A stretch of DNA of 64,000 nucleotides from positions 41,151 through 105,150 of the forward strand of contig CAVZJL010000054.1 in the NCBI GenBank assembly GCA_963775365.1, in the 5' to 3' direction. Position 1 is the first letter of the stretch. The number at the start of each line of letters is the position of its first letter. Positions 9,281-64,000 of the stretch are shown here, one piece after another. Position numbers and translations under genes: made by a program. The stretch is from an uncultured Acidobacteriaceae bacterium (GTDB lineage: Bacteria; Acidobacteriota; Terriglobia; Terriglobales; Acidobacteriaceae). The notes beneath the pieces are model-generated. The model was not told the DNA's origin and did not search any database. It was given only the letters and a program-made list of their open reading frames with translations.

Positions 9281-11482
9281 CTACTCTTCGACATCCACAC
9301 GGGATTGGTAGTAGTCGTTATAAGCGCGGCCATAATACTCGGCGTAGTCAGACGATTGCAGGTCTACCGCGTTCAAGACCACTCCCAGCAGGTGCGCTCC
9401 GGAACGCAAGAGAATCTCGCTTGCCCTGGCGACCACGTTCCTGGTTGCCTGGCCATAGCGAAGAACCAACACCACGCCGTCACTTACGGAAACCAGAACG
9501 GCTGCGTCGGTCACCGTCAAAACCGGCGGGGTATCGATCAGGATGAAGTCGTAGCTGGCGCGTAAGCTCTCTACCAACCGCTGCATCTGCAGCGAACCCA
9601 GCAACTCGGCGGGCATAGGTGCAATGGGACCTGCGGGCAGAATGTGAAGAGCGGGCAGCGCCGATACAGGAACGATTGCTTCTTCCAGACCGGCTTTGCC
9701 TGTCAATACCGAGGTGAGCCCAACCTTATTGCCAATCCTAAACCGCAGATGGACCGATGGCCGCCTGAGGTCGGAGTCGATCAGTAGTACGCGAGCGCCA
9801 TTCAGCGCAAACACGATCGACTCCAACGTGGTGATCGACGTCTTACCCTCAGAGGGCTTGGCACTGCTGATCAGAATGACCTGGGGAGGTGTCCCGGCGC
9901 GGGAAAGGAGAATGGTAGTGCGCAGCGACCGGTATGCTTCAGCCAGCCGTGACCAGGCGCCGGGCAGGGACGAGGTAGCGTCCCTGACAAAAGTCTCCGG
10001 GGAGAGCTGCTTTGTGTCCACCTGCGGAACCACGCCGAGCATGGGCAGGCCAAGCCGCTCTTCAATGTCATAGATGGTTTTGATATTGGTATCCAGAGCT
10101 TCTACCAGGAAGGACAAGAGCAAGCCGATTCCCAGGCCGCAGAGCAGTCCGATCGTCAGGTTGACCGACTTGCGGGGAGAACTGGGGAAGTCCGGAGCAT
10201 CCGCGGGATCGATCTTCCGGATATTCGTCGAATGGAGACCGGCGATGATTCCCGCCTCCTGCAAGCGCTGTTGTAGTCCGTCGTACAGCGATCGATTGGA
10301 TTCATATTCCCGGCGGGCGAGAGAGTATTCCACGGCCTTGGAATTGCCCATATAGGCCGAATTTTTCTCCTGATCCAATCTGCGCTGCAGTGCGTCCTGG
10401 TTTTGTTTGGCCGCGTTCACCTCTTCCTGCGCCCGGGCGATTACCGTGCCTTGCTCGCGCTTAGTAGCCTCGGTGACTTCAGCGATCTCCGAGCGAAGCT
10501 CGAGCAGCCTTGGATTCTTATCGCCATACTTCGCGTTAAGGTTCGCATACTCGGCTTGAAGAGAACTCATCCGTTCCTTCAGGCTCATCAAAACAGGATC
10601 GCCGCTCAGGGTCGCCAAAACATCGGGTGGCGCGCTCTGCATGGTAACCAACTTGGCTTCCGCGACCAGCCGTTGCGATTCGGCCGCCGTTACGTCGTGG
10701 CCGATGTCCACCAGTCGGGAAAGCACGATGCTCTGCGTCTGGTCAATGCCAACCAGGCCGATATCCTTCTGCACCGTCAACATGTGCTCTTGGCTGGCCT
10801 CCAGCCGCTTCCTCAGGTCACCCAGTTGCCGTCCAAGCCAGTCCGAAACCTGTTGCGTGGCGGCGTAATTTTGACTGAAGTTGTGCTCTACGTAATTGGC
10901 AATCAGGGTGTTACAAATATCTGCTGCGAGTTGAGGATTGCGGGCGGTGTAACTTAGCTCGAGGATATTGGTGTGGCCATAGCGTTCCGCCGCGAGACCT
11001 CCTTCAAAGATCCCGATTAATGCGTGACGGTCGCGTATCCTCGACAGATCGAACACATAATTGGAGCCCGGCGGTAAAAAATCCTTGTTCTGGTCGAGGT
11101 GCAGCGACTCGATGGTCGCCATCGCCAGGGTCGAGCTCTTAAGAATCGCGATCTCGGTATCTAGCTTGGCGACGTCGATGTATCCGCTGTCATAGCCCCC
11201 GCCGGTATCCATCCGGAATTGATCGGCGGTGTCCTGGGTAATTTCAATGTTTGCCGAAGAGCGATATTCCTTTGGGCTTGTCGCATTTTCGATAAACCCC
11301 GCGCCTGTGCCGAGCAGAGCGCAGACCAACACCAGCCAGATATATTTCCTGCCAATGAGGAGGAAGTGCTGCAGGGTCTGGCCGTCGTTCAACCCGAGGG
11401 TAAGGAAGGAGCGCTCGGGTGTGCTAGGTTCACGATACTCGGGGAGTAGAACCGGTTCCGATGGTGGGGGATAGACACTCAT
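9281..11482 (-). CDS. polysaccharide co-polymerase / BY-kinase (Wzc/GumC-like tyrosine autokinase)
   Basis: 733 aa; N-terminal chain-length-determinant region with TM, coiled coil, second TM, Walker A SAKPSEGKTS, DSDLRRP, and C-terminal Tyr cluster SSDYAEYYGRAYNDYYQS. Confidence 0.85.
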   Translation of the reverse strand: MSVYPPPSEPVLLPEYREPSTPERSFLTLGLNDGQTLQHFLLIGRKYIWLVLVCALLGTGAGFIENATSPKEYRSSANIEITQDTADQFRMDTGGGYDSGYIDVAKLDTEIAILKSSTLAMATIESLHLDQNKDFLPPGSNYVFDLSRIRDRHALIGIFEGGLAAERYGHTNILELSYTARNPQLAADICNTLIANYVEHNFSQNYAATQQVSDWLGRQLGDLRKRLEASQEHMLTVQKDIGLVGIDQTQSIVLSRLVDIGHDVTAAESQRLVAEAKLVTMQSAPPDVLATLSGDPVLMSLKERMSSLQAEYANLNAKYGDKNPRLLELRSEIAEVTEATKREQGTVIARAQEEVNAAKQNQDALQRRLDQEKNSAYMGNSKAVEYSLARREYESNRSLYDGLQQRLQEAGIIAGLHSTNIRKIDPADAPDFPSSPRKSVNLTIGLLCGLGIGLLLSFLVEALDTNIKTIYDIEERLGLPMLGVVPQVDTKQLSPETFVRDATSSLPGAWSRLAEAYRSLRTTILLSRAGTPPQVILISSAKPSEGKTSITTLESIVFALNGARVLLIDSDLRRPSVHLRFRIGNKVGLTSVLTGKAGLEEAIVPVSALPALHILPAGPIAPMPAELLGSLQMQRLVESLRASYDFILIDTPPVLTVTDAAVLVSVSDGVVLVLRYGQATRNVVARASEILLRSGAHLLGVVLNAVDLQSSDYAEYYGRAYNDYYQSRVDVEE

Positions 11483-13048: not shown

Positions 13049-14263
13049 TTACCTTGTATAGAAGTATGCTTGCGTTGCGAATCCCACGGCGGCCGTCAAC
13101 GCTGTCTTTGAAGCCGCTTTGAGTGCGCTCGGCGGAATGAAGAGAATGTCGTCTGGTTGCATGGTGATGTCCACCGCCCGGCCGCGTAACACGTCTTCCA
13201 GTTTGACTTTTTGCACCACCCGCGTGCCGCCCTCCGCAGTCCTCAGCAACAGAGTTCGTTGCGACCAGGAGGAAGGTTTGGTTCCCTGGGCCAGTGCGAT
13301 CACTTCGGAGAGCGTGGTGTGATTGGACTCACACAACGGAAAAGCTCCCGGCCTGGTTACGTTGCCACCCACGTAGACCACGCCGCAACGGCTTACCAGG
13401 ATAGTTTCTCCGGTCTTGATCTCCAGTTCGGCATTGTCATTTTCCCGCAACGTCGGATCCCACAGAACTGTTTGCGGGTTTTTCATCGAACCCGAAGGGA
13501 AGATTTCAATTACATGTCCCGCCCGGTCGCTCACGCCGCCCGCTTGGGTGAGCATATCGATCAGGCGCTTCTTGCCTGCCAAGGCATAGATACCGGGGCT
13601 TTTCACTTCGCCCATCACGGTTACGTTGTAGCCGAATTGCTCAGTCGTGACAATCACGCGCGGGTCGCGCAGGATCTGCTGTTGTAAAAAAAGCCTCGCG
13701 ATCGCCGGCGCTGCCTCGATTGAGGTCATGCCCTCGATGTGGAAGAGGCCAGCGTAGGGAATCGCGATCTCGCCGGCAGGTGAAACCGGCATTCTTATCG
13801 AGTACTCCGGGGCATCGAATACCTGCACCTCGACGATATCTCCGGGGCGTATCGGTCCGTAGCCCAGTCCCGCACCAGAAGACGGACCGGTGGGGGTCGC
13901 ATATCTCGACGAGCGGGCTGCCGAGCCCGCGGGTGCGGTCGCCTGGGGAAAGATCGGCTCTAGCGGAGTTGCATTTGATGCGGGATTACTAGGCGCCGGG
14001 GTGATCGGAACTGGCTCTTGGCTTTGCGAAGACAGCCCTCCGCTGTCTGCAGCTTGTCCGTGCACCGGCGCAACAAGCATAGTAAGTTGCAGAATTCCTA
14101 GGGCAGCCACAACTCTGAGCGCTTTCCACCGGGCGAGTTTTGCACAACGCCCATCGGGGCTAACATCGATGGCGGTGGTGGCGCCCGCCATGGCCGGGCT
14201 AGTGATTCGCAAGACAGGCTGCATTGCTAAGAGCATTTCTCCTGTAGCAGTAAAAGTCGGCAA
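13049..14263 (-). CDS. polysaccharide export protein (Wza-like, Poly_export + SLBB)
   Basis: 404 aa; IRPGDIVEVQVFDAPEYS, later SLBB-like VTVMGEVKSPGIY and VYVGGNVTRPGAF segments. Confidence 0.8.
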   Translation of the reverse strand: MPTFTATGEMLLAMQPVLRITSPAMAGATTAIDVSPDGRCAKLARWKALRVVAALGILQLTMLVAPVHGQAADSGGLSSQSQEPVPITPAPSNPASNATPLEPIFPQATAPAGSAARSSRYATPTGPSSGAGLGYGPIRPGDIVEVQVFDAPEYSIRMPVSPAGEIAIPYAGLFHIEGMTSIEAAPAIARLFLQQQILRDPRVIVTTEQFGYNVTVMGEVKSPGIYALAGKKRLIDMLTQAGGVSDRAGHVIEIFPSGSMKNPQTVLWDPTLRENDNAELEIKTGETILVSRCGVVYVGGNVTRPGAFPLCESNHTTLSEVIALAQGTKPSSWSQRTLLLRTAEGGTRVVQKVKLEDVLRGRAVDITMQPDDILFIPPSALKAASKTALTAAVGFATQAYFYTR

Positions 14264-14382
14264 GCATGGTCACCGCACCCTTGTCGATAGACCACGACCG
14301 GCATTCGCATCGAGCCTACCCCATCACAGTAACAGGAGAAATGCCGGAAAACATTCCTGCACTTGGTGTGGAGTTCAACTCA

Positions 14383-14949
14383 TTACGTCTTGGGCTCGCG
14401 TCCGGCTCTCTGCTTTACTGGCCTCGCCGGAACTCCGGCGTAAACCGTCCACGGCTCCAAATCGTGTGTGGCTACCGAACCTAGGCCGAGCACCGCACCC
14501 TCGCCCAGGTTGACCCCGGGGCAGACAGAAGCACGCGCGCACACCCATGAGTAGGAGCCCAGGTTCATGGGGAAGGAAATAAGCGGGAACGACGGGTCGT
14601 TGTAGTCATGCGTGGCGCCGCAAACGTAAGCCTGCTGGGAAACGATGGCGTGCGATCCAAAGGAAACCGGTGAAGGGTTATAGATCTCCGCCTCGTCGCC
14701 TAGAGAAACGCCATCCGCGCACAGGAGATTCCAGGGGGCCCATATGCGAGACCTCGGATAAAAATGGCAATGCGGGCCCAGCCTGGCTCCGAAGCAACGC
14801 AGAAGAAATGCACGCCAGGAATGAAAAGGACGCGGTGAGGTGCGAAACAATAGCGTCCAGCATACGGACCATGCCAACCTGCGCATGCGGTTCGACAAGG
14901 AGAACGACGGCCTTAGGTAGGGGTCGACGGATTGGGCTGCTCGACGCAT
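14383..14949 (-). CDS. WcaF-like hexapeptide-repeat O-acetyltransferase
   Basis: 188 aa; WRAFLLRCFGARLG, then left-handed beta-helix repeats and GEGAVLGLGSVATHDLEPWTVYAGVPARP, as in colanic-acid WcaF-type enzymes. Confidence 0.8.
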   Translation of the reverse strand: MRRAAQSVDPYLRPSFSLSNRMRRLAWSVCWTLLFRTSPRPFHSWRAFLLRCFGARLGPHCHFYPRSRIWAPWNLLCADGVSLGDEAEIYNPSPVSFGSHAIVSQQAYVCGATHDYNDPSFPLISFPMNLGSYSWVCARASVCPGVNLGEGAVLGLGSVATHDLEPWTVYAGVPARPVKQRAGREPKT

Positions 14950-18535: not shown

Positions 18536-19955
18536 ATGAGCGAATCCATTGCAATCACAGTAGTCGGATCAGGATACGTAGGTTTAGTGGCGGCCGCATG
18601 CTTTGCCGAGATCGGCCACCGGGTGTTGTGCGTCGACAACGACGAAGACAAGGTGAACAAGCTCAACCAGGGCGTGGTGCCTATTCACGAAGAGTTTCTC
18701 CCCGAACTGCTGGGCAGGCACCGGGCCAGCGGCCAGGTCCAGTTCACTACCGACCTTGGCCATGCCACGCAGGCGTCGCAGGTCATTTTCATCGCCGTAG
18801 GTACGCCGCAAAGCGAGACCGGCAACGCAGATCTGTCTTATGTAGACGCGGTGGCCAGCGAGATTGCCCGTTCGATTCACTCCTATAAGGTCATCGTCGA
18901 GAAAAGTACGGTGCCGGTGTACACCAACGACTGGATCCGGCGCACCATCGAACGCAATGGCGTTTCGAGGTCGCTCTTTGACGTGACTTCCAATCCCGAG
19001 TTCCTCCGCGAAGGCACTGCGGTCAAGGATTTTCTCCATCCCGACAGGATTGTTCTCGGCGCCGACAGCGAAGAGGCGGCGCGCCTGCTGGCCGCCATCT
19101 ACGAGCCGCTGACTTCAGGCAGCTACTACGAGCGTTCGGACGCCGTTCCCGGCCATCGATACGCAGCCGATCTTCCCCCTTTTCTGCAGACCTCGACCAA
19201 GGCGGCGGAGCTCATCAAGCATGCCTCGAATGCTTTCCTGGCCATGAAGATCTCCTTTATCAATGTGGTCGCCAACCTGTGCGAAGCGGTGGACGCGGAT
19301 GTGGAGCACGTCGCCAAGGGTATGGGCATGGACAAGCGCATCGGCAAGCGATTCCTGAGCGCCGGCATCGGCTACGGAGGCTCGTGCTTCCCCAAGGATG
19401 TCGCCGCGTTTCGCTATGTCGCGCAACAGCTGGGTATCGATTTCAGCCTGCTCGAGGAAGTGGAAAAGATCAACGAACTGCAGAAAGAGCGCTTCTTCCA
19501 GAAGATTCGCTCCGCATTGTGGACCTTGCGCAAAAAGCGTCTCGGCGTCCTCGGCCTTTCCTTCAAGGGAGGCACGGACGATATCCGCGAGTCTCCTGCC
19601 CTGGAAATCATCCAAATGCTGCTCGATGCGGGGGCTTCCATCTGCGCCCATGATCCGGCCGCCATCGAGCGCGCCAAGGTGGAGATGCCGCCCCACGCCA
19701 ACCTGCAATACACCGACGATCCCTATGCGGCCGCGGATAACGCCGACGCCTTGTTGATCCTCACCGACTGGGCCGAATTCAGCCCGTCTGGACCTCAAGA
19801 GGCTTCGCTATACGCTGCGCTATCCCATCATCATCGACGGCCGCAATCTCTTCGATCCCTGGGTCATGCAGGATCTGGGCTTCACCTATCTCAGCGTAGG
19901 CAGGCCCTCCCAGCACACCTCGGTCGAATCCGCATCGACCAAGCGTTGGCCTTAA
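18536..19955 (+). pseudogene. ugd: UDP-glucose 6-dehydrogenase, one frameshift near the 3' end
   Basis: VVGSGYVGLVAAACFAEIGH and GGSCFPKDV motifs; after the CCC run at 19783-19785 the shifted frame continues RLDLKRLRYTLRYPIIIDGRNLFDPWVMQDLGFTYLSVGR to TAA 19953-19955. Confidence 0.85.
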
Positions 19956-52029: not shown

Positions 52030-53957
52030 TTACAGGTCGATGCGCGCGCCCATGATGACCGTGCGGTCGCGAGGGAGCTGGAAGTACTCGGCGGCGTCCG
52101 CGGTCAGCCGGGACGTGGCCAGGAAGAGCCGCTTGCGCCACACGCTCAGGCCCGGCTCCTGGCCGATGTGCAGGTCGAGCTTGGACAGGAAGTAGGAGAC
52201 GTCCATGGGGTCCACGCAGCCCTTGATCTCGGCCCGGTTCATCAGCGGCAGCAGCGCGGGCACGTTCGGCGTGTCCATGTAGCCGAAGCTGACCGTGACA
52301 TGCGCGATCATGTCATCGGCGTAGCCAAGGTCATCGATGTCGGCGATCCGCTGGCTCTCCGGGACATGCGGCCTCGGCACCGTCTCGATGGACAAGATGA
52401 TGACGCGCTCGTGGAGCACGTGGTTGTGCTCGACGTTCGCCCGCAGCGCCAGTGGGGCCGTCTCCTTGCCCCGGTTCAGGAAGATCGCCGTCCCCGGGAC
52501 GCGCGCCAGCGCCGGCTGCTTGGAGTGCAGCTCGTTCACGGCTCGTGCAGCGACCCCTCATCGTGCTGGCGCAGCCGGGTGACAATGTGGCGGCCCTTCT
52601 GCCACGTGATGAGGACCGTGAACACCAGAAGGCCAACGAGCAGCGGCAGCCAGGCACCGCGGACGAACTTGGTGAGGTTGACCGCGACGAATGCCAGGTC
52701 CACGAGGAGCAGCAGGCCGGCAGCCGGCACCAGTAGCCAGAGCGGCTGGTGCCACTTCTTCCGGGCGATGTAAAAGAACAGCAGGGTTGTGCACGTGATG
52801 GTGCAGGTCACCGCCATGCCGTAGGCGTAGGCGAGCGCGTTGGAACTCTTGAAGATGAAGACGAGCGCCAGGACCCCCAAGAGTAGCGCCCAGTTGATCC
52901 AGGGCACGTAGATCTGGCCGACCTGTTCCTCGGAGGTGTGGTCGATCCGCAGCCGTGGCAGGTAGCCGAGCTGGGCGGCCTGCTGGGTCAGCGAGTACGC
53001 CCCGGAGATGACCGCCTGGGAGGCGATGACGGTGGCCACGGTAGCGAGGATGACCATGGGAATCCGGCCCCAGCCGGGCACCAGCAGGAAGAACGGGTTG
53101 GCGATCGCGCCCGCGGGGTTCCCGAGGACGAGCGCGCCCTGGCCCAGGTAGCTGAGGGTGCAGGCCGGGAAGACGAGCATCAGCCACATCGCGGTAATGG
53201 GCCGCCGCCCGAAGTGGCCCATGTCCGCGTACAGGGCCTCCGCCCCGGTGACGGCGAGGACCACGGCGGCCAGCGAGAAGAACGCGGCCGTGAAGTGGCC
53301 GGCCAGGAACCCGATGGCGTAAGTGGGCGACAATGCCTTCAGGATCGCCGGGTGGCCGATGATGCCGTGGACGCCCAGCACGGCGATGACGGTGAACCAG
53401 ACGGCCATGACCGGGCCGAAAAACCTGCCCACCGCCCCCGTCCCCAGCCGCTGGATGAAGAACAGGCCAAGGATGATGAGCGCCGTGATCGGCACCACCA
53501 GGTGCGTTACCGAGGGCGACACGATCTCGACTCCGGAGACCGCCGAGAGCACCGAGATGGCAGGCGTGATCAGCGAGTCGCCGAAGAACAGCGACGCCCC
53601 GAATACCCCGAGCATCGCGAGGAAGACCGTCACCCGCCGGCCGCTGGCCCCGCCCATCTTCCGGATCAGCGTGATGAGCGCCATGATGCCGCCCTCGCCG
53701 TCGTTGTCGGCGCGCATCACCAGCAGCACGTAGGTCACGGTGACGATGAGCATCCCGGACCAGAAGATCAGCGAGGTGACCCCGAAGACGCTATCCGTCG
53801 AAACCTGGATCCGATGCGGGTCCGTTGGGTCGAAAATCGTCTGAACCGTGTACAGCGGGCTGGTCCCGATGTCCCCGAATACCACGCCCAGCGCCCCGAG
53901 TGCGAGCGCCGCCTGGCCTGTACTTTCGCGCCTTGCTTGCCTTGCCACGGGGTTCAC
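52030..53957 (-). pseudogene. kup: KUP-family potassium transporter, one frameshift near 52540
   Basis: ALALGALGVVFGDIGTSPLYTVQTIF N-terminus (52536..53957); C-terminal piece 52030..52539 continues NELHSKQPALARVPGTAIFLNRGKETAPLAL. Confidence 0.85.
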
Positions 53958-54420: not shown

Positions 54421-54834
54421 TCAGACTCGGTGAGCGAAGCCGGCAACGATGTCGGTGCCGATGCCGATCACGATGGCCATGGACCCAGCAACCCAGGGGC
54501 GCAGGGCTTGCTGGTATCGGGCTATCAGCGCGGGGTCCTCGACCAGGCGGGCAAGGCCGGTGACGGTCACGCTCCAGCCGGTACGGGTGCGGGGATCGAT
54601 CTGGTCCGCCTCGTAGGCCACCACGTTTCCGCGGCCATGGTCCGCGCGCGCGGCGATCGCCGAGTCATCGTGGCTAAGGATGATGATCTGCCCGTCGCTG
54701 AGCAGGTGGTTGACGGGACGGATGGCCGGCATCGCGTGCTCGGTGAAGACGACGCGGCCATACTCGGCGCCCGCTAGCTTGTCCAGCGCCTGCTGCCTGG
54801 TCATCGGCTTCATCTGCCGGTCGCCTTCGTCCAT
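54421..54834 (-). CDS. pyridoxamine 5'-phosphate oxidase-family (FMN/F420-binding split-barrel) protein
   Basis: 137 aa; LAGAEYGRVVFTEHAMPAIRPVNHLLSDGQIIILS...VAYEADQIDPRTRTGWSVTVTGLARLV. Confidence 0.65.
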   Translation of the reverse strand: MDEGDRQMKPMTRQQALDKLAGAEYGRVVFTEHAMPAIRPVNHLLSDGQIIILSHDDSAIAARADHGRGNVVAYEADQIDPRTRTGWSVTVTGLARLVEDPALIARYQQALRPWVAGSMAIVIGIGTDIVAGFAHRV

Positions 54835-54933: not shown

Positions 54934-55291
54934 TTAGTCCTTCGGGGTATAGCCGACGGCGTGCAGCAGGCGGGAGCGGCGGGTGCCGGAGGCGGGACGG
55001 GCTCGGCGCCGGCGGCGCGGGCGGGGCCGGAGTCACGCCGGCGACGATCTGCTCGGCCATGCCATACAACAGCGGCAGGGCGCCGGCGACCACGCCGCCG
55101 GTCTGGTTGATGTGCTCCACGCCGGGGCCGATGAGCTCGGCGTCCGTCTTGATGCCCTGCACGATCTCGGCGGCGCCCTCCAGGTTGGCTCCGATGCGGT
55201 CCAGCAGCGTGCCGGCCCAGTACAGGTACAAGGCCAGGCCCGCGATCAGCGCGACGATGACCAGGACCGTGAGGACGACCAGCAGGGTCAT
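54934..55291 (-). CDS. small single-pass membrane protein, array member 5 (3' end uncertain)
   Basis: ATG 55291 in ATGA overlap with member 4; MTLLVVLTVLVIVALIAGLALYLYWAGTLLDRIGANLEGAAEIVQGIK...; literal ORF runs to 54674 but loses GC3 bias after ~54960, whereas the shifted frame ends LLHAVGYTPKD-TAA at 54934. Confidence 0.5.
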
Positions 55292-55566
55292 GATGACTTC
55301 ACCGTCTCTACGACGCGGCCGAGGAAAAGGTGATGCTGCAGGCCTTCGGCTAGTACGGCTTCCACGCCGTTGGCCACCTGCGGGATGAGCACGGTCGAGG
55401 CGGTGTTCGCCTTGGCCGCGGTCAGCGTGCCGCCGATCGCGAGCACCCGCTTGTCGATGACCTTGATCAGGTAGATGAGCAGGCTGAGCAGGGCGGCGAC
55501 AGCCAGCACGACAACGAAGCCGACGATGATCGCGACCACCCAAAGCGTATGCTCAGTGGGGTTCAT
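55288..55566 (-). CDS. small single-pass membrane protein, array member 4
   Basis: 92 aa; MNPTEHTLWVVAIIVGFVVVLAVAALLSLLIYLIKVIDKRVLAIGGTLTAAKANT...; GGGAGG upstream; high GC3. Confidence 0.6.
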   Translation of the reverse strand: MNPTEHTLWVVAIIVGFVVVLAVAALLSLLIYLIKVIDKRVLAIGGTLTAAKANTASTVLIPQVANGVEAVLAEGLQHHLFLGRVVETVKSS

Positions 55567-55572
55567 GCGGGG

Positions 55573-55818
55573 CTAGCCTCCCAGCCGGGCGCGGCCGCGG
55601 GCCAGGCCCGCGATAATGATGGTGGCGTGCTCGATCGTGGTGCTCAGCGCGGCCAGCGGTGCGGTGTTTCGCACCGCGCCCTCCAGGGCCGCGTTGATCT
55701 TCGGTGCCTCGTCGCCGATCTGCTTGGCCAGGACGAGGATGGGCACGACGAGGGCCACGACCGCGAGGACGACGATGCCCCCGATCACGTAGCCGATGGT
55801 CCAGTCGGTGATCATCAC
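55573..55818 (-). CDS. small single-pass membrane protein, array member 3
   Basis: 81 aa; MMITDWTIGYVIGGIVVLAVVALVVPILVLAKQIGDEAPKINAALEGAVRNT...; ATGA overlap with member 2. Confidence 0.6.
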   Translation of the reverse strand: MMITDWTIGYVIGGIVVLAVVALVVPILVLAKQIGDEAPKINAALEGAVRNTAPLAALSTTIEHATIIIAGLARGRARLGG

Positions 55819-56042
55819 ACGCCTTCGCAGAAGTCACGGACCGGCTTCAGGTTCGCGTTCACCGAGGTGAGCCGCGTGGGGACGGTCGACGTAAGCTGGT
55901 CGACCGCCTGGACGCCGCCAGTGACGGCGCGCAGGGTGGTGCGGATCGCGTACAGGTGGAGGATGACCCGCAGCAGGCCGACGGCGGTGATCGCGATGAT
56001 CAGGCCCGCGACGGCGATGGTCATCCAGGCGGCTGCTGGCAT
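55815..56042 (-). CDS. small single-pass membrane protein, array member 2
   Basis: 75 aa; MPAAAWMTIAVAGLIIAITAVGLLRVILHLYAIRTTLRAVTGGVQAV...; AGGAG 8 nt upstream. Confidence 0.6.
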   Translation of the reverse strand: MPAAAWMTIAVAGLIIAITAVGLLRVILHLYAIRTTLRAVTGGVQAVDQLTSTVPTRLTSVNANLKPVRDFCEGV

Positions 56043-56063
56043 GACGGTGCGCTCCTATCCGAA

Positions 56064-56318
56064 TTAGCCGAGTAGCTTCGCGACCGAGCCGGCATAGCGA
56101 ACCGCGCCAACTCGCACCGCCTCGATGGTCTTGTCCGTGACGGCCAGTGCCTCGGGCACGCCGTCCAGCTCGCCGACGAGGGCAACCCCGCCAGCCAGGA
56201 TGGCGTCACACGCGCCCCGGATGCGCTCGCAGGCGGCGAGCACCCGGTTGAGCAGGTAGATGACGACAGGGAAGACCACCACGAGCAAGATGGCGTTGCC
56301 GATCCACCAGAGGACCAT
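56064..56318 (-). CDS. small single-pass membrane protein, array member 1
   Basis: 84 aa; MVLWWIGNAILLVVVFPVVIYLLNRVLAACERIRGACDAILAGGVALV...; AAGGAGAA 5 nt upstream; high GC3. Confidence 0.6.
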   Translation of the reverse strand: MVLWWIGNAILLVVVFPVVIYLLNRVLAACERIRGACDAILAGGVALVGELDGVPEALAVTDKTIEAVRVGAVRYAGSVAKLLG

Positions 56319-56374
56319 GGGCTTCTCCTTTCGGGAGGCGGGAGGCGGGAGGCGAGGGTGGCGGGAGGCGAGGG
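56319..56374 (-). promoter_or_regulatory. C-rich heptamer-repeat leader between coxG and the small-protein array
   Basis: mRNA sense: CCCUCG CCUCCCG CCACCCUCG CCUCCCG CCUCCCG CCUCCCG AAAGGAGAAGCCC AUG; four CCUCCCG units next to the SD. Confidence 0.35.
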
Positions 56375-56965
56375 TCAGGTCGCTGGCTGGTAGGGCAGGA
56401 AGAACCGGCGGAATACGCGCGCCAGGGCTAGCCGCGTGGCCCGCGCCGCCAAGGCGAGGCCGCCGACTGAGCTTCCGGCGGCGGCGGCCGCGATCTGCTC
56501 GGCCGACTCACCGCGGTCCAGCCGGGTGATGCGGTCGACCATCGTGGTGGCGAAGTCGCGCATCATGATGGCCGAGAAGTCAGCGATCATGCCGCGTCCG
56601 TACTGCGCCGCCGCGCCGGAAAGTTGCAGGTCCTGCACGACGTCGACGCGGGTGCCACGGCCCTTGGCGGAAAGCGCGGCCGTGACCGTCATGGCGGCCT
56701 GGCCGCGGCCTCGCTCATCGGCGCCGGATGCCTGCACGGCGATCTTCCTCGCCGCGTCGTCCTTCTCCGTGATGTCGGCGTTCCCGGCGAACTGCAGCCG
56801 GACCGGGCCCATCCGGATGGCGACCCGGCCCTTGTACTTGCCATCTCCGAGATCTTCGGTCAGCTCCGCGCCCGGCAGGCACGAGGCCACCTGCGGGATG
56901 TCGTCGAAGAACTTCCAGACCTTGTCGACTGGCTGCGCCACCTCGAAGCCGCTATTGATGATCAT
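56375..56965 (-). CDS. coxG: CoxG-family (SRPBCC) carbon monoxide dehydrogenase subunit G
   Basis: 196 aa; MIINSGFEVAQPVDKVWKFFDDIPQVASCLPGAELTEDLGDGKYKGRVAIRMGPVRLQFAG...LSGAAAQYGRGMI; 4-nt overlap with xdhC-like gene. Confidence 0.75.
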   Translation of the reverse strand: MIINSGFEVAQPVDKVWKFFDDIPQVASCLPGAELTEDLGDGKYKGRVAIRMGPVRLQFAGNADITEKDDAARKIAVQASGADERGRGQAAMTVTAALSAKGRGTRVDVVQDLQLSGAAAQYGRGMIADFSAIMMRDFATTMVDRITRLDRGESAEQIAAAAAGSSVGGLALAARATRLALARVFRRFFLPYQPAT

Positions 56966-57951
56966 CGGACCAGCTCCTCCTCGTAACGACTTCGACAGCC
57001 CGCGCAGCAGAAGTAATGGGTCACCTCGCCGTGCTCAAGCGGCCAGTGCGCAGCGTCGGCCGTCACGGTCATCCCGCACACCGGGTCGACGGCCGGGCCG
57101 GGGGTGGCGACGGGGGCGCGTGTGGTCGCGGGCGCAGGCGAGGTGGCAGGCGCGGACGCGGGGCCGGCAGCGGAAGAGGCGGCTTGGCATGGCTGCGCCA
57201 GGGCTCCCGAGGCGCGCAGTTGTACCAGCTCGGCGATGATCGCGACGGCCATCTCCTCGTGGCTGGTCCGGCCTAGGTCCAGCCCCGCCGGGACGTGCAC
57301 CCGGTCGAGGTCAGCCCGCGGCAGCCCGCGCTCGGCCAGGTAGCCCAGCACCGCCGCGCCCCGCTTGCGGGAGCCGACGAGGCCGAGGTAGGCCGGACGA
57401 GACGCGATGGCCTGGCCGATCATGTCCTCATCGCCATGCCCCTGGGTGGCGACGACGACCATCGACCGCGCGGACACGCGTGCCGCGGCGTAGTCCTTGG
57501 TGAACTCGGCCCCCGGCACCAGGTCAACCGCCCAGTCCAGCGCCCGGGCCAGCCCGGCCAGGACGTGAGCCATCGGGGAGCCGCCCACGATCACCAGGTG
57601 CGGCGCGGGGAGCACCGGCTCGACGTACACCTCGAGGGCACCCTCGCTCTGGCATGAGATCGGCACCACCGTCATGCCGTCCTGCACGGCGCCACCGAAC
57701 CGCTCGGCCGTGCCGAGCAGCAGCAGCCGGGGCTTCCCGTCGGCGATGGCCTGCTTGGCCTCGCGGATCACCACGGGCTCGGCGCAGGCACCGCCGATCC
57801 AGCCGCTCAGCTGGCCGCTGGCGGTGATGATCGCCCGCGACCCCTGCTTCCCTGACGAGGGGCCTTCCCGCCAGACCACGGTCGCCAGCGCGAACGGCTC
57901 GCCGCGGGAGGCGAGCGAGGAAGCCTCCGAGAGGATGCCCAGACCACTCAT
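56962..57951 (-). CDS. XdhC/CoxF/CoxI-family maturation protein fused to a C-terminal YHS/TRASH metal-binding domain
   Basis: ATG 57951; 329 aa; FALATVVWREGPSSGKQGSRAII, LVIVGGSPMAHVLAGLA Rossmann-like part, then Ala/Pro linker and DPVCGMTVTADAAHWPLEHGEVTHYFCCAGCRSRYEE. Confidence 0.8.
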   Translation of the reverse strand: MSGLGILSEASSLASRGEPFALATVVWREGPSSGKQGSRAIITASGQLSGWIGGACAEPVVIREAKQAIADGKPRLLLLGTAERFGGAVQDGMTVVPISCQSEGALEVYVEPVLPAPHLVIVGGSPMAHVLAGLARALDWAVDLVPGAEFTKDYAAARVSARSMVVVATQGHGDEDMIGQAIASRPAYLGLVGSRKRGAAVLGYLAERGLPRADLDRVHVPAGLDLGRTSHEEMAVAIIAELVQLRASGALAQPCQAASSAAGPASAPATSPAPATTRAPVATPGPAVDPVCGMTVTADAAHWPLEHGEVTHYFCCAGCRSRYEEELVR

Positions 57952-58060
57952 GATGCCCGTCCCGGCACAGCGATGACGCAATCGCGTAGCGCTGAGGCAT
58001 CGCAATTGCGCAATCGCGTGGGAGCAGGGGGGCAGCGGCGGAGTCCGGGAGGCATCATGG

Positions 58061-60495
58061 CTAGTCCTGCCTGATCGGCGGCGCGCCGGACACGTCGTGG
58101 CCGGTCTGCAGTGCCTCCCAGACCCGGTCGGGCAGCAGCGGCATGTCGATGTTGCGAATCGGCCCGCCCCCGGTCCCGCTCCCACCCCCGGCCCCAGCCT
58201 CGGACAGCGCGTCCAGGACGGCGTTGACGAAGGCCGCGGGGCCGCCGACGGCGGCGCATTCGCCGATGCCCTTGGCGCCCAGCGGGTGGTGCGGGCACGG
58301 GGTGACGACCTCACTGTGCAGCTCGAATCCTGGTGTCTCCCAGGCTGAGGGCAGCATGTAGTCCATGTAGTTGGAGCCGATGCAGTTGCCGTCGGCGTCG
58401 AAGGTGATGAACTGCATCGACGCCATCGCGTACGCCTCGGTGAGGCCGCCCATGATCTGGCCCTCGACGATCATCGGGTTGATCCGGATGCCGCAGTCGT
58501 CCACCGCGACCGTCTTCAGCACGTCCCACACCCCGGTGAGCGGGTCCACCTCGACGGTGACGATGTAGACCGCGAACGGCCAGGTCAGGTTCGGCGGATC
58601 GTAGTACGCGGTGTTCTCCAGGCCGGCTTCATGCCGTCGGGCATGTTGCCGTACGCGGCCATCGCGCACTCCTGGATGGTCACGCCGCGGTCCGGGGCGG
58701 ACCTGATGTAGAACCGGCCCAGCTCCCATTCGACGTCTTCCTCGGACACCTCAAGCAGGTGGGCGGCGAGCTTGCGGGCCTTGGCGCGGATCTTGCGCGA
58801 CACCATGGCTATCGCTGCCCCGGCCACCGGCGTGGAGCGGGAGGCGTAGGTACCCATTCCGAACGGAGCTGTGTCAGTGTCGCCCTCCTCCACTGTCACG
58901 TCCTCCGCCGGGATGCCCAGCTCGTGGGCGACGATCTGCGCCCAGGTGGTCTCGTGCCCCTGACCCTGGCCCCGCGCGCCAGTCCGCAGCATCGCCTTGC
59001 CGGTCATGTGGATCTTGAGGTCGGCGGAGTCGAACATCTTGATGCCGAGGATGTCGTACTCGCGGCTGTTGCCCGCGCCCAGTGGCTCGGTCATCGTGGA
59101 GATGCCCAGGCCGAGGAGCCGGCCGCGCTTGCGGGCCTCGGCCTGCTCGCGGCGGAAGTTCTCGTAGTCAATCGCCTTGAGGCCCACGTCGAGGCACTTG
59201 GCGTACTGCCCGGAGTCGGTGAGGAAGCCGAGCGGCGTGCGGTGCGGGAAGTCGTCATCGCGGACGAAGTTCATCCGGCGGAACGCGGCCTGGTCCATGC
59301 CCAGGTCGTCTGCGGCGGCCTGCATCATCCGTTCCTGGAAGAACATCGCCTCGGTGACCCGGAACGAGCACCGGTAGGCCACACCGCCGGGGGCCTTGTT
59401 GGTGTAGAGGCCGCGGGCAGCCAGGTGCGCCACCGGGATGTCGTAGGCGGCGAACGCCGAGTGAATCAGCCCGATCTTGAACTTGCTCGGCTGCGCGTCG
59501 GCGAAGAACGCCCCGTGGTCGGCGTCGGTGCGCATCCGGACGGCGAGGATCTTGCCGTCCTTGCGCAGCGCCATCTCCCCCTTGAGGTACACGTCGCGGG
59601 CGAACCCGGTGGAGATGAGGTTGCCCGTCTTGTCCTCGACCCACTTGACGGGCCGTTCTAGCAGGATTGAGGCCAGGATCGACATCACGTAGCCGGGGTA
59701 GACCGGGACCTTGTTGCCGAAGCCGCCGCCGATGTCCGGCGAGATGATCCGGATCATGTGCTCGGGGATCTCGGCGACCATCGCGACGGCGGCCCGGATG
59801 ATGTGCGGTGCCTGGCTCGTCATGTGGACCGTGAGCTTGCCGGTGGCCCGGTTGAAGTCCGCGACCGACCCGCAGCACTCGATCGGCGAGGGATGCGAGC
59901 GCGGGTAGTGCAGTTCCAGCTTCGACACCACGTCGGCTTGCTCGAACGCCCGGTCGGTGCCGGCCTTGTCCCCCACCTCCCAGTCGTAGATCACGTTGCC
60001 GTCCTGGCCGTCCTTGTCGTCCCTGATGACCGGGGCATCCGCCGCCTGGGCCTGCCAGGGGTTGACGATGACGGGCAGCGGCTCGTAGTCGACATCGATC
60101 GCCTCGCAGGCGTCCTTGGCGATGTACGGGTCGTCGGCAATGACGCAGGCGACTTCCTGGCCCTGGAACCGCACCTTGTCGGTGGCCAGCACCGCCTGCG
60201 TGTCGTAGGACAGGGTGGGCATCCAGGCGAGGTTCCTGGTCGCCATCATCTCGCCGGTCAGGACAAGGTGAACGCCGGGAATCTCCCAGGCCTTGCTGGT
60301 GTCGATGGACCTGATCCGGGCGTGCGGCAGCGGGCTGCGCAAGATCTCCATGTGCAGCATTCCGGGCAGGGTCACGTCGTCGAGGTAGTTGCCCTTGCCC
60401 CGGATGAACCGGTCATCCTCGACGCGCTTGCGGCTGGCGCCGATGCCGCCGATCTTGATCTCGTCCAGTGCCTTGGACGTGACTTCCGCGGTCAT
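58061..60495 (-). pseudogene. coxL: form-I [MoCu] CO dehydrogenase large subunit, one frameshift near 58628
   Basis: Active-site loop GGVAYRCSFRVTEAMF (AYXCSFR = form I signature); ORFs 58585..60495 and 58061..58729 join as AAYGNMPDGM/EAGLENTAYYDPPNLTW; total about 811 codons. Confidence 0.9.
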
Positions 60496-61037
60496 GCTGT
60501 CTCCTCAGCAGCGCCGGCCTCAGCGCGCAGCTTCGTGGCGGCCCACAGGACGGACTTCACGATGTTCTGGTAACCAGTGCAGCGGCACAGGTTGCCCGAC
60601 AGCCCCCACCGGACGTCCTCCTCGGTGGGGTCGGGGTTGCGGTCAAGCAGGCCCTTGGCCGCCATCATCATGCCCGGCGTGCAGAATCCGCACTGCAGGC
60701 CGTGCTCCTGCCGGAATCCCTCCTGGAGCGGGTGCAACTCGCTGGCCGACGCCAGCCCCTCGACGGTTTGCACGGACCGGCCGTCGACCTGGACGGCGAG
60801 CATCGTGCAGGACTTGATCGGCCTGCCGTCCACCAGGACGGTGCACGCACCGCAGTTGGTGGTGTCACAGCCCATGTGAGTGCCAGTGGCTCCGACCCCC
60901 CGGCGGATCAGGTGCGACAGCAGCAGCCGCGGCTCGATCTCGGCTATCTTCTTGCGACCGTTGATCGTGAACCTGATCCGGCGGACCGGGATGTCGCTGG
61001 CCGCCTCGTCGCCGAGGTCGTCGAATACCTGCGTCAT
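60492..61037 (-). CDS. coxS: CO dehydrogenase small subunit, [2Fe-2S]
   Basis: 181 aa; [16 protein letters not shown] and [10 protein letters not shown]...[12 protein letters not shown] cluster motifs. Confidence 0.9.
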
Positions 61038-61042
61038 GTCGG

Positions 61043-61939
61043 TCAGGCCGCCTGTTCTGTCGTCGCCGGCTCGGCTGCCACGGGCAGGGAACCGCCCAGG
61101 ATGCGCGCGGTGAAGGTGTGCACCATGTGCCGCTTGTACGCGGCGCTACCGCGGTGGTCGGTTCGCGGCTGCGCCACGGCCGCCGCGAGGCCGGCCGCCT
61201 CCTCGATCAGCTCGGGCGTGAGCGCCTTGCCGACCAGGAGCGCCGCCGCCTCGGCCGCGTTGATGGTGGACCCGCCGACCCCGGTCAGCCCGATGCCCGC
61301 GCGGACGACGCTGCCAGCGGCGCTTACCTCGATCGCCACGGCCACGCCGCACGTGGCGAAGTCCCCGACCCGCCGCTCCAGCTTCAGGTAACCGCCGGCG
61401 CGCTTGCCGGCCGCCGCCGGCACGATGGCCTCGACCGCGATCTCGTCGTGCTCAAGCGCGGTCTCGAACGGCCCGGTCACGAAGGAGGCGAGCGGGATTG
61501 CCCGGCGGCCGGACGGCCCCTGAGCCACCACCGACCCGCCGAGCGCGATCATCACCGCCGCCCAGTCGCCTTGCGGGTCCGCGTGGCACAAGGACCCGAC
61601 CAGCGTCCCCCGGTTCCGCACCAGCGGGTCGGCGATCATCGGGGCGGCGGCGGCCATCGTCGGCTGCGTGTCCCGCAGCAGATCCGACCACTCCAGGTCC
61701 GCATGCCGCGCCAGCGCCCCGATGTGCAGGCTCCCATCAGGCGCCGCCGTCACGTACGAGAGGCCCGGGACGTTATTGATGTCAATGAGGAGCTCCGGCG
61801 ACGCGAACCGGAGCTTCATCATTGGCACGAGGCTCTGCCCGCCGGCGAGGACCTTGGCGTAGTCGCCGCCATCACGCAGCAGGCCAATCGCCTCGTCGAG
61901 GGAGCGCGGCGCCTCGTAGCGGAACCGCGATGGATACAT
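61043..61939 (-). CDS. coxM: CO dehydrogenase medium subunit, FAD-binding
   Basis: ATG 61939 with GGAGG 8 nt upstream; [54 protein letters not shown]. Confidence 0.85.
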
Positions 61940-62066
61940 GCACGTGCCTCCGGGGAGTAGGAACGGCAGGTTACTTAGGGGCAGGTTGTAGAAGGGCGCC
62001 CCGTGCCGTCTGGACTGAGTGGAGCGACCGAGGAACGAGGGAGCGCAGCGAGGGAAGACGGCGCGC

Positions 62067-62350
62067 CTAAAGGGCGCCCGTATCGGGGGTCCGGGGGTCG
62101 CCCCCCGGGCTAGCATCATCGGGGATGGCCACCGGCCCGGATTCGTAGTCGGGGTCAGGGCGCGGCTCCTGGTGCGGCGGCCAGGGCCCGGCGACGGGCT
62201 GGCCGGCGACCTTGAGGAAGTCGACGACCTGCGGCCAGGCCCACACGGTGGAGCCCCGCTCGCGTTGGTCTTAGGCGCGTCCTCGATCGCCTCGTACAGG
62301 CGCGGATTGCCCTTGCTGTGACCGTCAGACTCGACTCGCATGCCCCGCAT
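62067..62350 (-). pseudogene. small hypothetical gene upstream of coxM, one probable frameshift at the C4 run 62254..62257
   Basis: ATG 62350 with AAGAGGGG upstream; MRGMRVESDGHSKGNPRLYEAIEDAPKTNASG then, one frame over, STVWAWPQVVDFLKVAGQPVAGPWPPHQEPRPDPDYESGPVAI...TAG; both parts have high GC3. Confidence 0.4.
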
Positions 62351-63629: not shown

Positions 63630-64000
63630 GTGCAAGTCCCGGCTCAGGTCGAGTACGAAAGGGCAACAAGCGTCAGCCACGCGCTCGCGCTGCTCGCCCG
63701 GTATGGCCCCGAGGCGCGAATCCTTGCTGGCGGGCACAGCCTCATCCCCATGATGAAGCTGCGCATCGCCCAGCCCGAAGTCCTCATCGACATCAACGGA
63801 ATCGCCGACCTCAGGTACATCACAAAATCGGGCGACGTCCTCCGAATCGGCACCCTCGCCAGGCATGCCGACCTGCTGGAATCCGCGCTCGCGGGTGAGC
63901 ACTTCGCCATCTTGCACGACGCCGAGCGGGTGATCGCCGATCCGATCGTCCGCGAGTGGGGCACCGTGGGAGGCTCGCTGTGCCAGGCGGACCCGTCCGA
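63630..64000 (+). CDS. xanthine dehydrogenase/CoxM-family FAD-binding subunit, partial (runs off window end)
   Basis: GTG 63630 with GGAGG at 63621-63625; VQVPAQVEYERATSVSHALALLARYGPEARILAGGHSLIPMMKLRIAQPEVLIDINGI...; not in the ORF track because no stop is reached. Confidence 0.8.
   Translation, partial: MQVPAQVEYERATSVSHALALLARYGPEARILAGGHSLIPMMKLRIAQPEVLIDINGIADLRYITKSGDVLRIGTLARHADLLESALAGEHFAILHDAERVIADPIVREWGTVGGSLCQADPS

Follow-up and report, generated by a model that had tools for sequence, protein, structure and literature searches.

Five very small genes sit at the 3' end of a carbon monoxide dehydrogenase (CODH) operon at positions 54,934 to 56,318 of the DNA analyzed here, a 64,000-nt stretch of contig CAVZJL010000054.1 (assembly GCA_963775365.1) that we call the window, and they raise the question whether they belong to the CODH system at all and what they might do there. 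The genes, m1 to m5 in order of transcription, lie on the minus strand directly after coxG and encode predicted single-pass transmembrane (TM) proteins. The preliminary description of this DNA had treated the array as an appendage of CODH that may provide a membrane docking or electron-acceptor module. Our comparisons indicate that the same five families occur far beyond CODH, mostly inside [NiFe]-hydrogenase clusters of other Actinomycetota, and that the linkage to CODH arose in a single lineage, in which CoxG lacks the TM anchor known from its published homologue.

Several features of the window are those of genuine, jointly translated genes. Each of the five proteins has one strongly hydrophobic N-terminal segment (maximum 19-residue mean Kyte-Doolittle hydropathy, KD19, of 2.5–3.2), followed by basic residues and a tail of 41–90 residues rich in Ala, Gly, Val and Thr. 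Third-position GC is 0.8–1.0 in the coding frames, and the switch of frame coincides exactly with the gene boundaries. From m1 to m5, the junctions are a 21-nt spacer, a 4-nt overlap, a 6-nt spacer and a 4-nt ATGA overlap, and AGGAG-type Shine-Dalgarno (SD) sites precede m1 (AAGGAG, 7 nt upstream), m2 and m4. The preliminary description holds on all these points, namely the positions of the five open reading frames (ORFs), their spacing with an SD site at each non-overlapping start, the G/C-biased third positions, the architecture shared by 5/5 proteins and the translational coupling, for which the stop/start overlaps and SD sites speak. For m3, the ATG at 55815 gives a protein of 80 aa that matches the orthologues better than the 81 aa read from the GTG, and is the likelier start. 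An exact-match look-up with the window m4 sequence returned no identical record. Among orthologues, sharply conserved motifs recur in all five families, as in the m1 signature M.LWWIGN..LL.VV.PVVV.LL.R.L....I...D.I..G.....LD.VP.L..T........L.RYG.AL..IL., and the median pairwise ratios of nonsynonymous to synonymous substitution rates (dN/dS) are 0.19 for m1, 0.22 for m2, 0.45 for m3, 0.24 for m4 and 0.26 for m5. Judged from these comparisons, m1–m5 are real protein-coding genes under purifying selection.

When GTDB was scanned with an m5 alignment, one genome being taken per species, 360 relatives were found, and our locus counts refer to the best 80 of them. All 80 belong to Trebonia/Streptosporangiaceae or to unclassified metagenome-assembled genomes of Actinomycetota. 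Genes m1–m4 precede m5 in 74/74 loci with room for them, coxG is present in 70/70 array loci with enough flank, and the complete series coxM-coxS-coxL-xdhC-coxG lies on the array strand in 61/61 loci whose upstream flank is 7 kb or longer. Inside this lineage, the array is an invariant part of the CODH operon, and to this extent the linkage to coxG and coxMSL claimed earlier stands. Among Actinomycetota of soil and peat, the form linked to CODH is abundant, as seen from the 360 GTDB-species relatives and thousands of metagenome protein clusters. A tblastn search of 72,556 plasmids with the five-protein array gave no match.

Outside this clade, divergent m1 homologues with 31–57% identity to window m1 were found in Acidimicrobiales, Solirubrobacteraceae and other Actinomycetota. 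All five families are represented in Acidimicrobiia, Thermoleophilia and further Actinomycetota, for the most part within [NiFe]-hydrogenase clusters. In these clusters, hidden Markov models (HMMs) built from the Trebonia orthologues matched with E values of 1e-17 to 1e-22 for m1 and, on the next gene, of 1e-12 to 1e-18 for m2; in loci L081, L083 and L085/86, every small ORF could be assigned to one of m1–m5 (E 1e-11 to 1e-22). The set behaves as two sub-modules, [m1-m2] and [m3-m4-m5], which occur as m1-m2-m3-m4-m5, as m3-m4-m5-m1-m2 (L081, L085/86, L087, L088 and L090) or split across an operon. In the split loci L083/84 and L091, the gene for the small subunit of the [NiFe]-hydrogenase has m3-m4-m5 divergently upstream, and m1-m2(-DUF1059) follow the maturation genes on their downstream side. 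In the hydrogenase-linked relatives, the small-protein sets flank adjacent HydS-HydL pairs and do not separate them.

A metagenome scan with the divergent m1 alignment returned 563 relatives, and contexts were tallied for the 80 loci kept. Nineteen of the 80 were CODH-linked, as coxG-m1-m2-m3-m4-m5, and 29 were of the hydrogenase type, 6 with structural genes and 23 with accessory genes (NifU-like, HycI, TPR, HypC, DUF1059). A further 8/80 had only CbiA/PadR genes nearby, and 24/80, mostly on contigs under 5 kb, showed no such gene. All CODH-linked m1 proteins are 65–81% identical to window m1 and all others 31–57%, and the 26 CODH-linked m1 sequences included in a neighbour-joining tree group together in one clade without intruders. 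Therefore, the CODH linkage represents one lineage-specific recruitment of a module that is usually linked to hydrogenases. Every relative outside the clade is a homologous array without linkage to cox genes, either in a [NiFe]-hydrogenase cluster or standing alone, so the view of the array as a CODH-specific appendage, for which such arrays had been named as contrary evidence, has to be given up.

The hydrogenase-type contexts have recurrent companions of their own. A DUF1059 gene regularly follows m1-m2 (L081, L083, L088–L092 and many of L093–L172), and CbiA/ParA (CooC-type) ATPases and PadR regulators accompany the pair. In L081, ParA/PadR genes and a RuBisCO operon lie nearby, and no hydrogenase is encoded within 10 kb; the same locus encodes at 10259–10930 an m2-family member of 223 aa with a long C-terminal stretch of acidic, Pro-rich tandem repeats (…EPDPRDAEPDRQRS… repeated).

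Two traits distinguish the CODH clade from its relatives. In m5, the tail motif given in Table 1 is followed by a Pro-rich linker and the ARPASGTRRSRLLHAVGYTPKD motif, both specific to this clade, which ends m5 in a basic peptide (ARPASGTRRSRL..AVGF); hydrogenase-linked m5 has a true length of 83–92 aa and possesses neither the linker nor the peptide. The other trait concerns CoxG. In Mycobacterium smegmatis, a flexible linker connects the N-terminal SRPBCC domain of CoxG with a TM helix at the C-terminus, and the protein shuttles menaquinone while tethered to the membrane (Kropp et al., 2025; PMC12202499). The premise of the preliminary description that CoxG is a tether for CODH is thereby dated, as CoxG is now regarded as a shuttle with a TM helix of its own. 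Window CoxG has no TM helix (maximum KD19 1.33), and neither have the array-linked orthologues (median maximum KD19 1.06). Instead, these proteins end in an Arg-rich amphipathic helix, ...GFxLGLRAARMALxRVFRRFFLPYQP (...RVFRRFFLPYQP in the window), with the exact motif in 52/75 loci. In related genomes, two CoxG paralogues that are not linked to an array (L032, ~18600–19300, plus strand; L047, ~13700–14409, minus strand) combine an SRPBCC domain with a long Ala/Pro/Thr linker, a C-terminal TM helix (KD19 1.86 and 2.14) and a basic tail. The contrast indicates that array-linked CoxG has lost its own TM anchor. Both changes, the CoxG without TM helix and the m5 extension, are lineage-specific and tie the module to CODH.

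The tails of all five families are predicted to be helical and probably interact with one another. Conservation along the tails has a period of 3.4–3.5 residues in 5/5 families, with a power approximately 4x the background that was reached by 0/500 shuffles, a signature expected of helices packed in a coiled coil. In an AlphaFold2 model of a natural CoxG-m1 fusion, m1 appeared as one uninterrupted 85-residue helix, at low confidence (predicted local distance difference test, pLDDT, 68.8; predicted template modeling score, pTM, 0.42). A profile search of the PDB returned only coiled coils, including designed ones, and chemoreceptor bundles, with E values of 0.005 or worse. Since basic residues trail the TM helix and the N-termini are short, a C-in topology with cytoplasmic tails is favored. 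No cofactor-binding motifs were found in the m1–m5 sequences, which leaves the electron-acceptor role suggested earlier unsupported.

Whether the five proteins are paralogues, as had been proposed, depended on the depth of the comparison. With the window sequences alone, similarity among m1–m5 was marginal and driven by the TM helix, and in hhalign comparisons of Trebonia-only profiles only m3 and m4 were significantly related (95.8%); the claim thus lacked support from these data. It gained support from broad profiles that included divergent members: m2 matched m5 with 98.5% probability (E 1.6e-15) and m3 matched m4 with 97.5% (E 5e-12), followed by m1 with m4 (94.8%), m1 with m3 (94.6%) and m2 with m3 (77%), in alignments spanning 73–99 columns that comprise TM helix and tail. 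These profile comparisons support five paralogues in two groups, {m1, m3, m4} and {m2, m5}, which are joined by a weaker bridge. Neither the five proteins nor ten divergent relatives scored above threshold against Pfam or NCBIfam. In agreement with the earlier statement that the proteins fit no characterized family and loosely resemble DUF948, matches to DUF948 (PF06103) recurred in register but below threshold (13–20 bits versus a gathering cut-off of 37.2; m2 14.7, best relative 20.1). The likeness consists in a helical segment that comes after a TM helix at the N-terminus; the difference is that all m-protein scores stay under the gathering threshold, and DUF948 is itself a family without described function. 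In one sense the array is not unplaceable: its genes are members of those unnamed families that are found alongside high-affinity hydrogenases.

We consider a membrane dock the best explanation for these observations and assign it a probability of roughly 0.5. Each of the five small bitopic proteins would contribute its N-terminal TM helix and its heptad-periodic tail, a long and probably cytoplasmic α-helix at the C-terminus, to a hetero-oligomer that consists of a TM bundle and a coiled-coil stalk. This structure would hold CoxG and CODH at the membrane; assembly, topology and docking are what we infer here. A hetero-oligomer is suggested because five distinct families strictly co-occur and are translationally coupled. 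The module is a conserved one of Actinomycetota that in most lineages resides within clusters for high-affinity (Hhy/group 1h-1m-like) [NiFe]-hydrogenases, and of which one copy was recruited once, in the Trebonia/Streptosporangiaceae lineage, to the 3' end of a form-I CODH operon directly after coxG. There, CoxG has swapped its own TM anchor for the conserved basic amphipathic helix, and the dock would hold CoxG and thereby CoxMSL at the membrane. Menaquinone could be taken up and menaquinol returned at the docked enzyme, the clade-specific C-terminal peptide of m5 may act as an extra tether, and an equivalent dock may serve Hhy-type hydrogenases in other lineages. Of the docking module envisaged earlier, the broader form survives, as it accommodates two kinds of trace-gas oxidoreductases and the lost CoxG anchor, whereas its restriction to CODH does not.

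A number of observations weigh against such a dock. At least three long loci (L081, L085/86, L087) carry the five-gene set with neither a hydrogenase nor a CODH nearby, and the module can thus exist without an adjacent enzyme partner; in addition, some 20-kb loci (L113, L114, L169) show only m1-m2. The contrast in CoxG anchors was drawn from two paralogues and one published protein, and composition can inflate hhalign scores between TM-rich profiles. The AlphaFold2 model of the CoxG-m1 fusion contains no confident CoxG-m1 interface (pTM 0.42), and it is by reasoning from the data above that we infer both the assembly and the contact with CoxG/CODH. Finally, coxL and m5 are frameshifted in the window, and the system might be decaying in this organism if the indels are real.

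The stand-alone loci fit a general membrane or envelope stress complex, remotely like DUF948/YtxG, that is merely co-regulated with starvation or persistence genes (CODH, high-affinity hydrogenase, WS_DGAT, Usp) and has no contact with the enzymes. In L085/86 and L087, stand-alone arrays adjoin WS_DGAT, Usp and other unrelated genes, and m2-like members and one m3-like member give the recurrent in-register matches to DUF948, with E values of 7e-4 to 0.1. However, these scores are far under the cut-off (at most 20.1 versus 37.2 bits), most long loci place the array inside operons, either coupled to coxG or between structural and maturation genes of hydrogenases, and the TM loss that is specific to array-linked CoxG copies would be left unexplained, so we regard this alternative as unlikely. 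Less likely still is a function as maturation or assembly factor, for example as a membrane platform for the delivery of metals or cofactors to the active sites of both enzymes. The gene neighbourhoods are suggestive of such a function, since m1-m2 lie among HypC, HycI, NifU-like, CooC-type CbiA ATPase, TPR and DUF1059 genes in hydrogenase clusters, and the window array comes after coxG and the gene for XdhC/CoxI-type cofactor insertion. Yet no specific metal site is common to both enzymes (Ni-Fe versus Mo-Cu), conserved Cys/His metal ligands are missing from the family consensus sequences except for single residues, and the tails resemble structural coiled coils.

Another explanation would reduce the array to a single meaningful gene, with m1 as the C-terminal anchor of CoxG (CoxG_CT) separated by a stop codon or a sequencing error and the other four ORFs unrelated to it. 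It would account for approximately 25 database proteins of 283–290 aa in which CoxG (PF06240) is fused to m1, and it agrees with the C-terminal TM helix of the published CoxG (PMC12202499). The fusions surfaced only with a query of concatenated m1–m5 sequences, which is biased by length: all proteins that it retrieved had 235 aa or more and were either fusions by frameshift or CoxG-m1 fusions. Several of the latter carry frameshifts, and several 'fusions' of other members are clearly frameshifted reads. In 75/75 genome loci, a stop codon separates coxG and m1, in the window together with a change of frame. An m1 profile retrieved 5802 clusters at 90% identity, the best 120 of which were all stand-alone proteins of ~84 aa, and an exhaustive search of 1.84 billion representatives gave 318 clusters at 50% identity, nearly all of 80–90 aa. 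As m1 homologues are also found in hydrogenase clusters without coxG, and m2–m5 are conserved and related to m1, the notion of a split-off anchor is refuted as a general explanation. The numbers indicate that m1 is a family in its own right and that CoxG-m1 fusions are a rare minority picked by a length-biased search. PF26262 is listed for one m1 homologue. Public protein collections contain many chimeric 'proteins' in which adjoining array genes, or XdhC, CoxG and m1, are joined by frameshifts, and the concatenated query favored them (P0001–P0010, P0013, P0042). The most skeptical view, in which a GC-rich assembly prone to errors simulates genes in non-coding DNA, is refuted by conservation: high-GC DNA does give many spurious ORFs and the window does contain frameshifts in coxL, kup and m5, but orthologues with conserved motifs and signs of purifying selection are present in hundreds of independent short-read and long-read assemblies.

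The frameshifts can be traced by comparison with the closest relative, L015 (85% DNA identity over the region), in which m5 (120 aa), CoxL (801 aa) and Kup (711 aa) are intact. Orthologues of m5 have ~120 aa and the C-terminal end ...ARPASGTRRSRLLxAVG[FY]xxx (= ...ARPASGTRRSRLLHAVGYTPKD). Window m5 has a 5-nt gap relative to L015 at about 55006, past which the conserved C-terminus runs on in another frame to a stop at 54934, and the literal ORF to 54674 is for this reason a frameshift artefact. The preliminary description had offered both ends; the orthologue C-termini and the L015 alignment confirm 54934. In coxL, the frame switches at about 58624–58630 (region 58585–58729) and in kup at about 52539–52542 (region 52536–52542). 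That three conserved genes within ~8 kb are frameshifted points to an indel-prone assembly; possibly the frameshifts reflect true decay or pseudogenisation of the CODH system in this organism. Directly downstream of the array, a pyridoxamine-5'-phosphate-oxidase-like gene (PF12900) lies at 54421–54834 on the minus strand, and the frameshifted literal m5 ORF enters it. Genes downstream of the array are not conserved among related loci.

Table 1. Genes of the m1–m5 array and of the CODH operon preceding it (window coordinates).
Feature	Position	Strand	Product, length or basis	Remarks
m1	56064..56318	(-)	84 aa, single-pass, 'MxLWWIGN' family	N-terminal TM helix and long helical tail ending VGAVRYAGSVAKLLG
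m2	55815..56042	(-)	75 aa, single-pass, paralogue of m5	C-terminus kept across orthologues: LTSVNAxLKPVRDFCETV
m3	55573..55818	(-)	80/81 aa, single-pass, paralogue of m4	Start overlaps m2 stop (GTGATG)
m4	55288..55566	(-)	92 aa, single-pass	Tail motif kept: LIPQVAxGVEAVLAEGLQHHLFLGRVL
m5	54934..55291	(-)	~120 aa, single-pass, frameshifted in window	TM helix and helical tail with HINxTGGVVAGALPLLYGMAE
coxG	56375..56965	(-)	SRPBCC domain, linker, C-terminal helix	Pfam PF06240 E 1.4e-15; PDB 8UDS_D (CoxG family) E 3e-24
XdhC/CoxI-type molybdenum-cofactor insertion protein	56962..58314	(-)		ORF over-extended 5'; homology from ~57954
coxL, form-I large subunit	58061..60495	(-)	AYRCSFR	Split by frameshift
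coxS, [2Fe-2S] subunit	60492..61037	(-)	Pfam	
coxM, FAD subunit	61043..62350	(-)	Pfam	Probable start near 61981, ORF over-extended

The operon in the window is of form I because CoxL carries AYRCSFR, the local version of the AYXCSFR active-site loop of form-I Mo-Cu CODH, and coxM, coxS, coxL and coxG were all recognized by Pfam, as was the XdhC/CoxI-type gene. The XdhC/CoxI-type protein has a C-terminal TRASH-like metal-binding domain (PF24273, E 4e-4, below cut-off). Compared with L015, the spacer between coxG and m1 is extended by a 44-nt insertion (56343–56386) that is built of CCTCGCCTCCCGCC-like direct repeats; the m1 SD site of L015 contains the coxG stop (TAG), which is only 10 nt ahead of the m1 ATG. 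A second, divergently transcribed cluster of the cox/xanthine-oxidase family begins ~1.3 kb upstream of coxM (63630–63998, plus strand) with a CoxM-like protein (51%), followed by CoxS- and CoxL-like proteins (~40–60%), and is conserved across Trebonia-type loci (positions 1–2000 in most of L001–L080). No hydrogenase genes were found in the window.

Among known systems, HylTM1-5 are the closest in layout. These five short predicted TM proteins are encoded in group 1l [NiFe]-hydrogenase clusters (Ortiz et al., bioRxiv 10.1101/2020.08.06.239558), and in an AlphaFold model from a 2026 paper their helices intertwine into a scaffold that would anchor the cytosolic enzyme at the membrane, a result of modeling only (PMC13554262). 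Compared by description only, both sets consist of five consecutive short genes for proteins with one predicted TM helix each (here 75–120 aa), inside the operon of a soluble, high-affinity trace-gas oxidoreductase that needs the quinone pool. In contrast, the hylTM genes lie between hylS and hylL in Hymenobacter (Bacteroidota) and eight other phyla, while the array described here comes after coxG in the operon of a Mo-Cu CODH. Two small single-TM proteins (82–92 aa) and a DUF1059 protein were reported from group 1m [NiFe]-hydrogenase clusters (Ray et al., 2022; PMC9561532). In clusters with the gene content described there, which encode HycI/HybD peptidase, NifU-like FeS, CooC-type ATPase, TPR and DUF1059 proteins, the pair of small genes is homologous to m1 and m2. 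The paper notes two small proteins, whereas we found m3–m5 nearby in the same cluster type; the window set differs further in being contiguous, without DUF1059 and attached to CODH, as in the 61/61 Trebonia-type loci. CoxG_CT of M. smegmatis (PMC12202499) is comparable in so far as either structure would hold the menaquinone-shuttling CoxG domain at the membrane, and the rare CoxG-m1 fusion ORFs resemble its layout of CoxG_NT, linker and TM helix. However, CoxG_CT is one helix on the CoxG polypeptide, while here a CoxG without TM helix is combined with five separate proteins, of which m1 also occurs without CoxG. In the HucM stalk of the Huc hydrogenase (PMC10017518) and the Ndh-Ncp quinone conduit (PMC13524794), helical accessory proteins link a soluble respiratory dehydrogenase to membrane quinone; the architectures are unlike those proposed here, and the likeness is one of concept only. 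In a literature search of limited scope, we found no report tying such small TM proteins to CODH.

By analogy with HylTM1-5, a more far-reaching possibility can be formulated, which we hold only tentatively and consider less probable than the membrane dock as such. In it, m1–m5 and HylTM1-5 would be homologous, and m1–m5 would represent in actinobacteria a universal five-subunit 'socket' in the membrane that is interchangeable among oxidoreductases for atmospheric trace gases. The enzyme would dock on the TM bundle and coiled-coil tube of the socket, which might also conduct menaquinone or lipid to the enzyme. The socket would have evolved for [NiFe]-hydrogenases, and the Trebonia lineage would have plugged the Mo-Cu CODH into it, replacing the TM anchor of CoxG and adding the CODH-specific tether peptide of m5.

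How soluble high-affinity hydrogenases and CO dehydrogenases hand over electrons to the membrane quinone is a live question, which has been solved for Huc with HucM and for CoxG and is still open for Hhy and Hyl. One unannotated set of five proteins that is genetically coupled to both enzyme classes is a testable candidate for the missing membrane partner. What is new here is that the set comprises five members in hydrogenase clusters where two had been noted, that it was recruited a single time to form-I CODH and that loss of the CoxG TM helix accompanied this recruitment. The m1–m5 families, at present labeled 'hypothetical protein' or missed entirely, merit names and profile models, and they probably constitute a shared membrane dock for enzymes living on trace gases.

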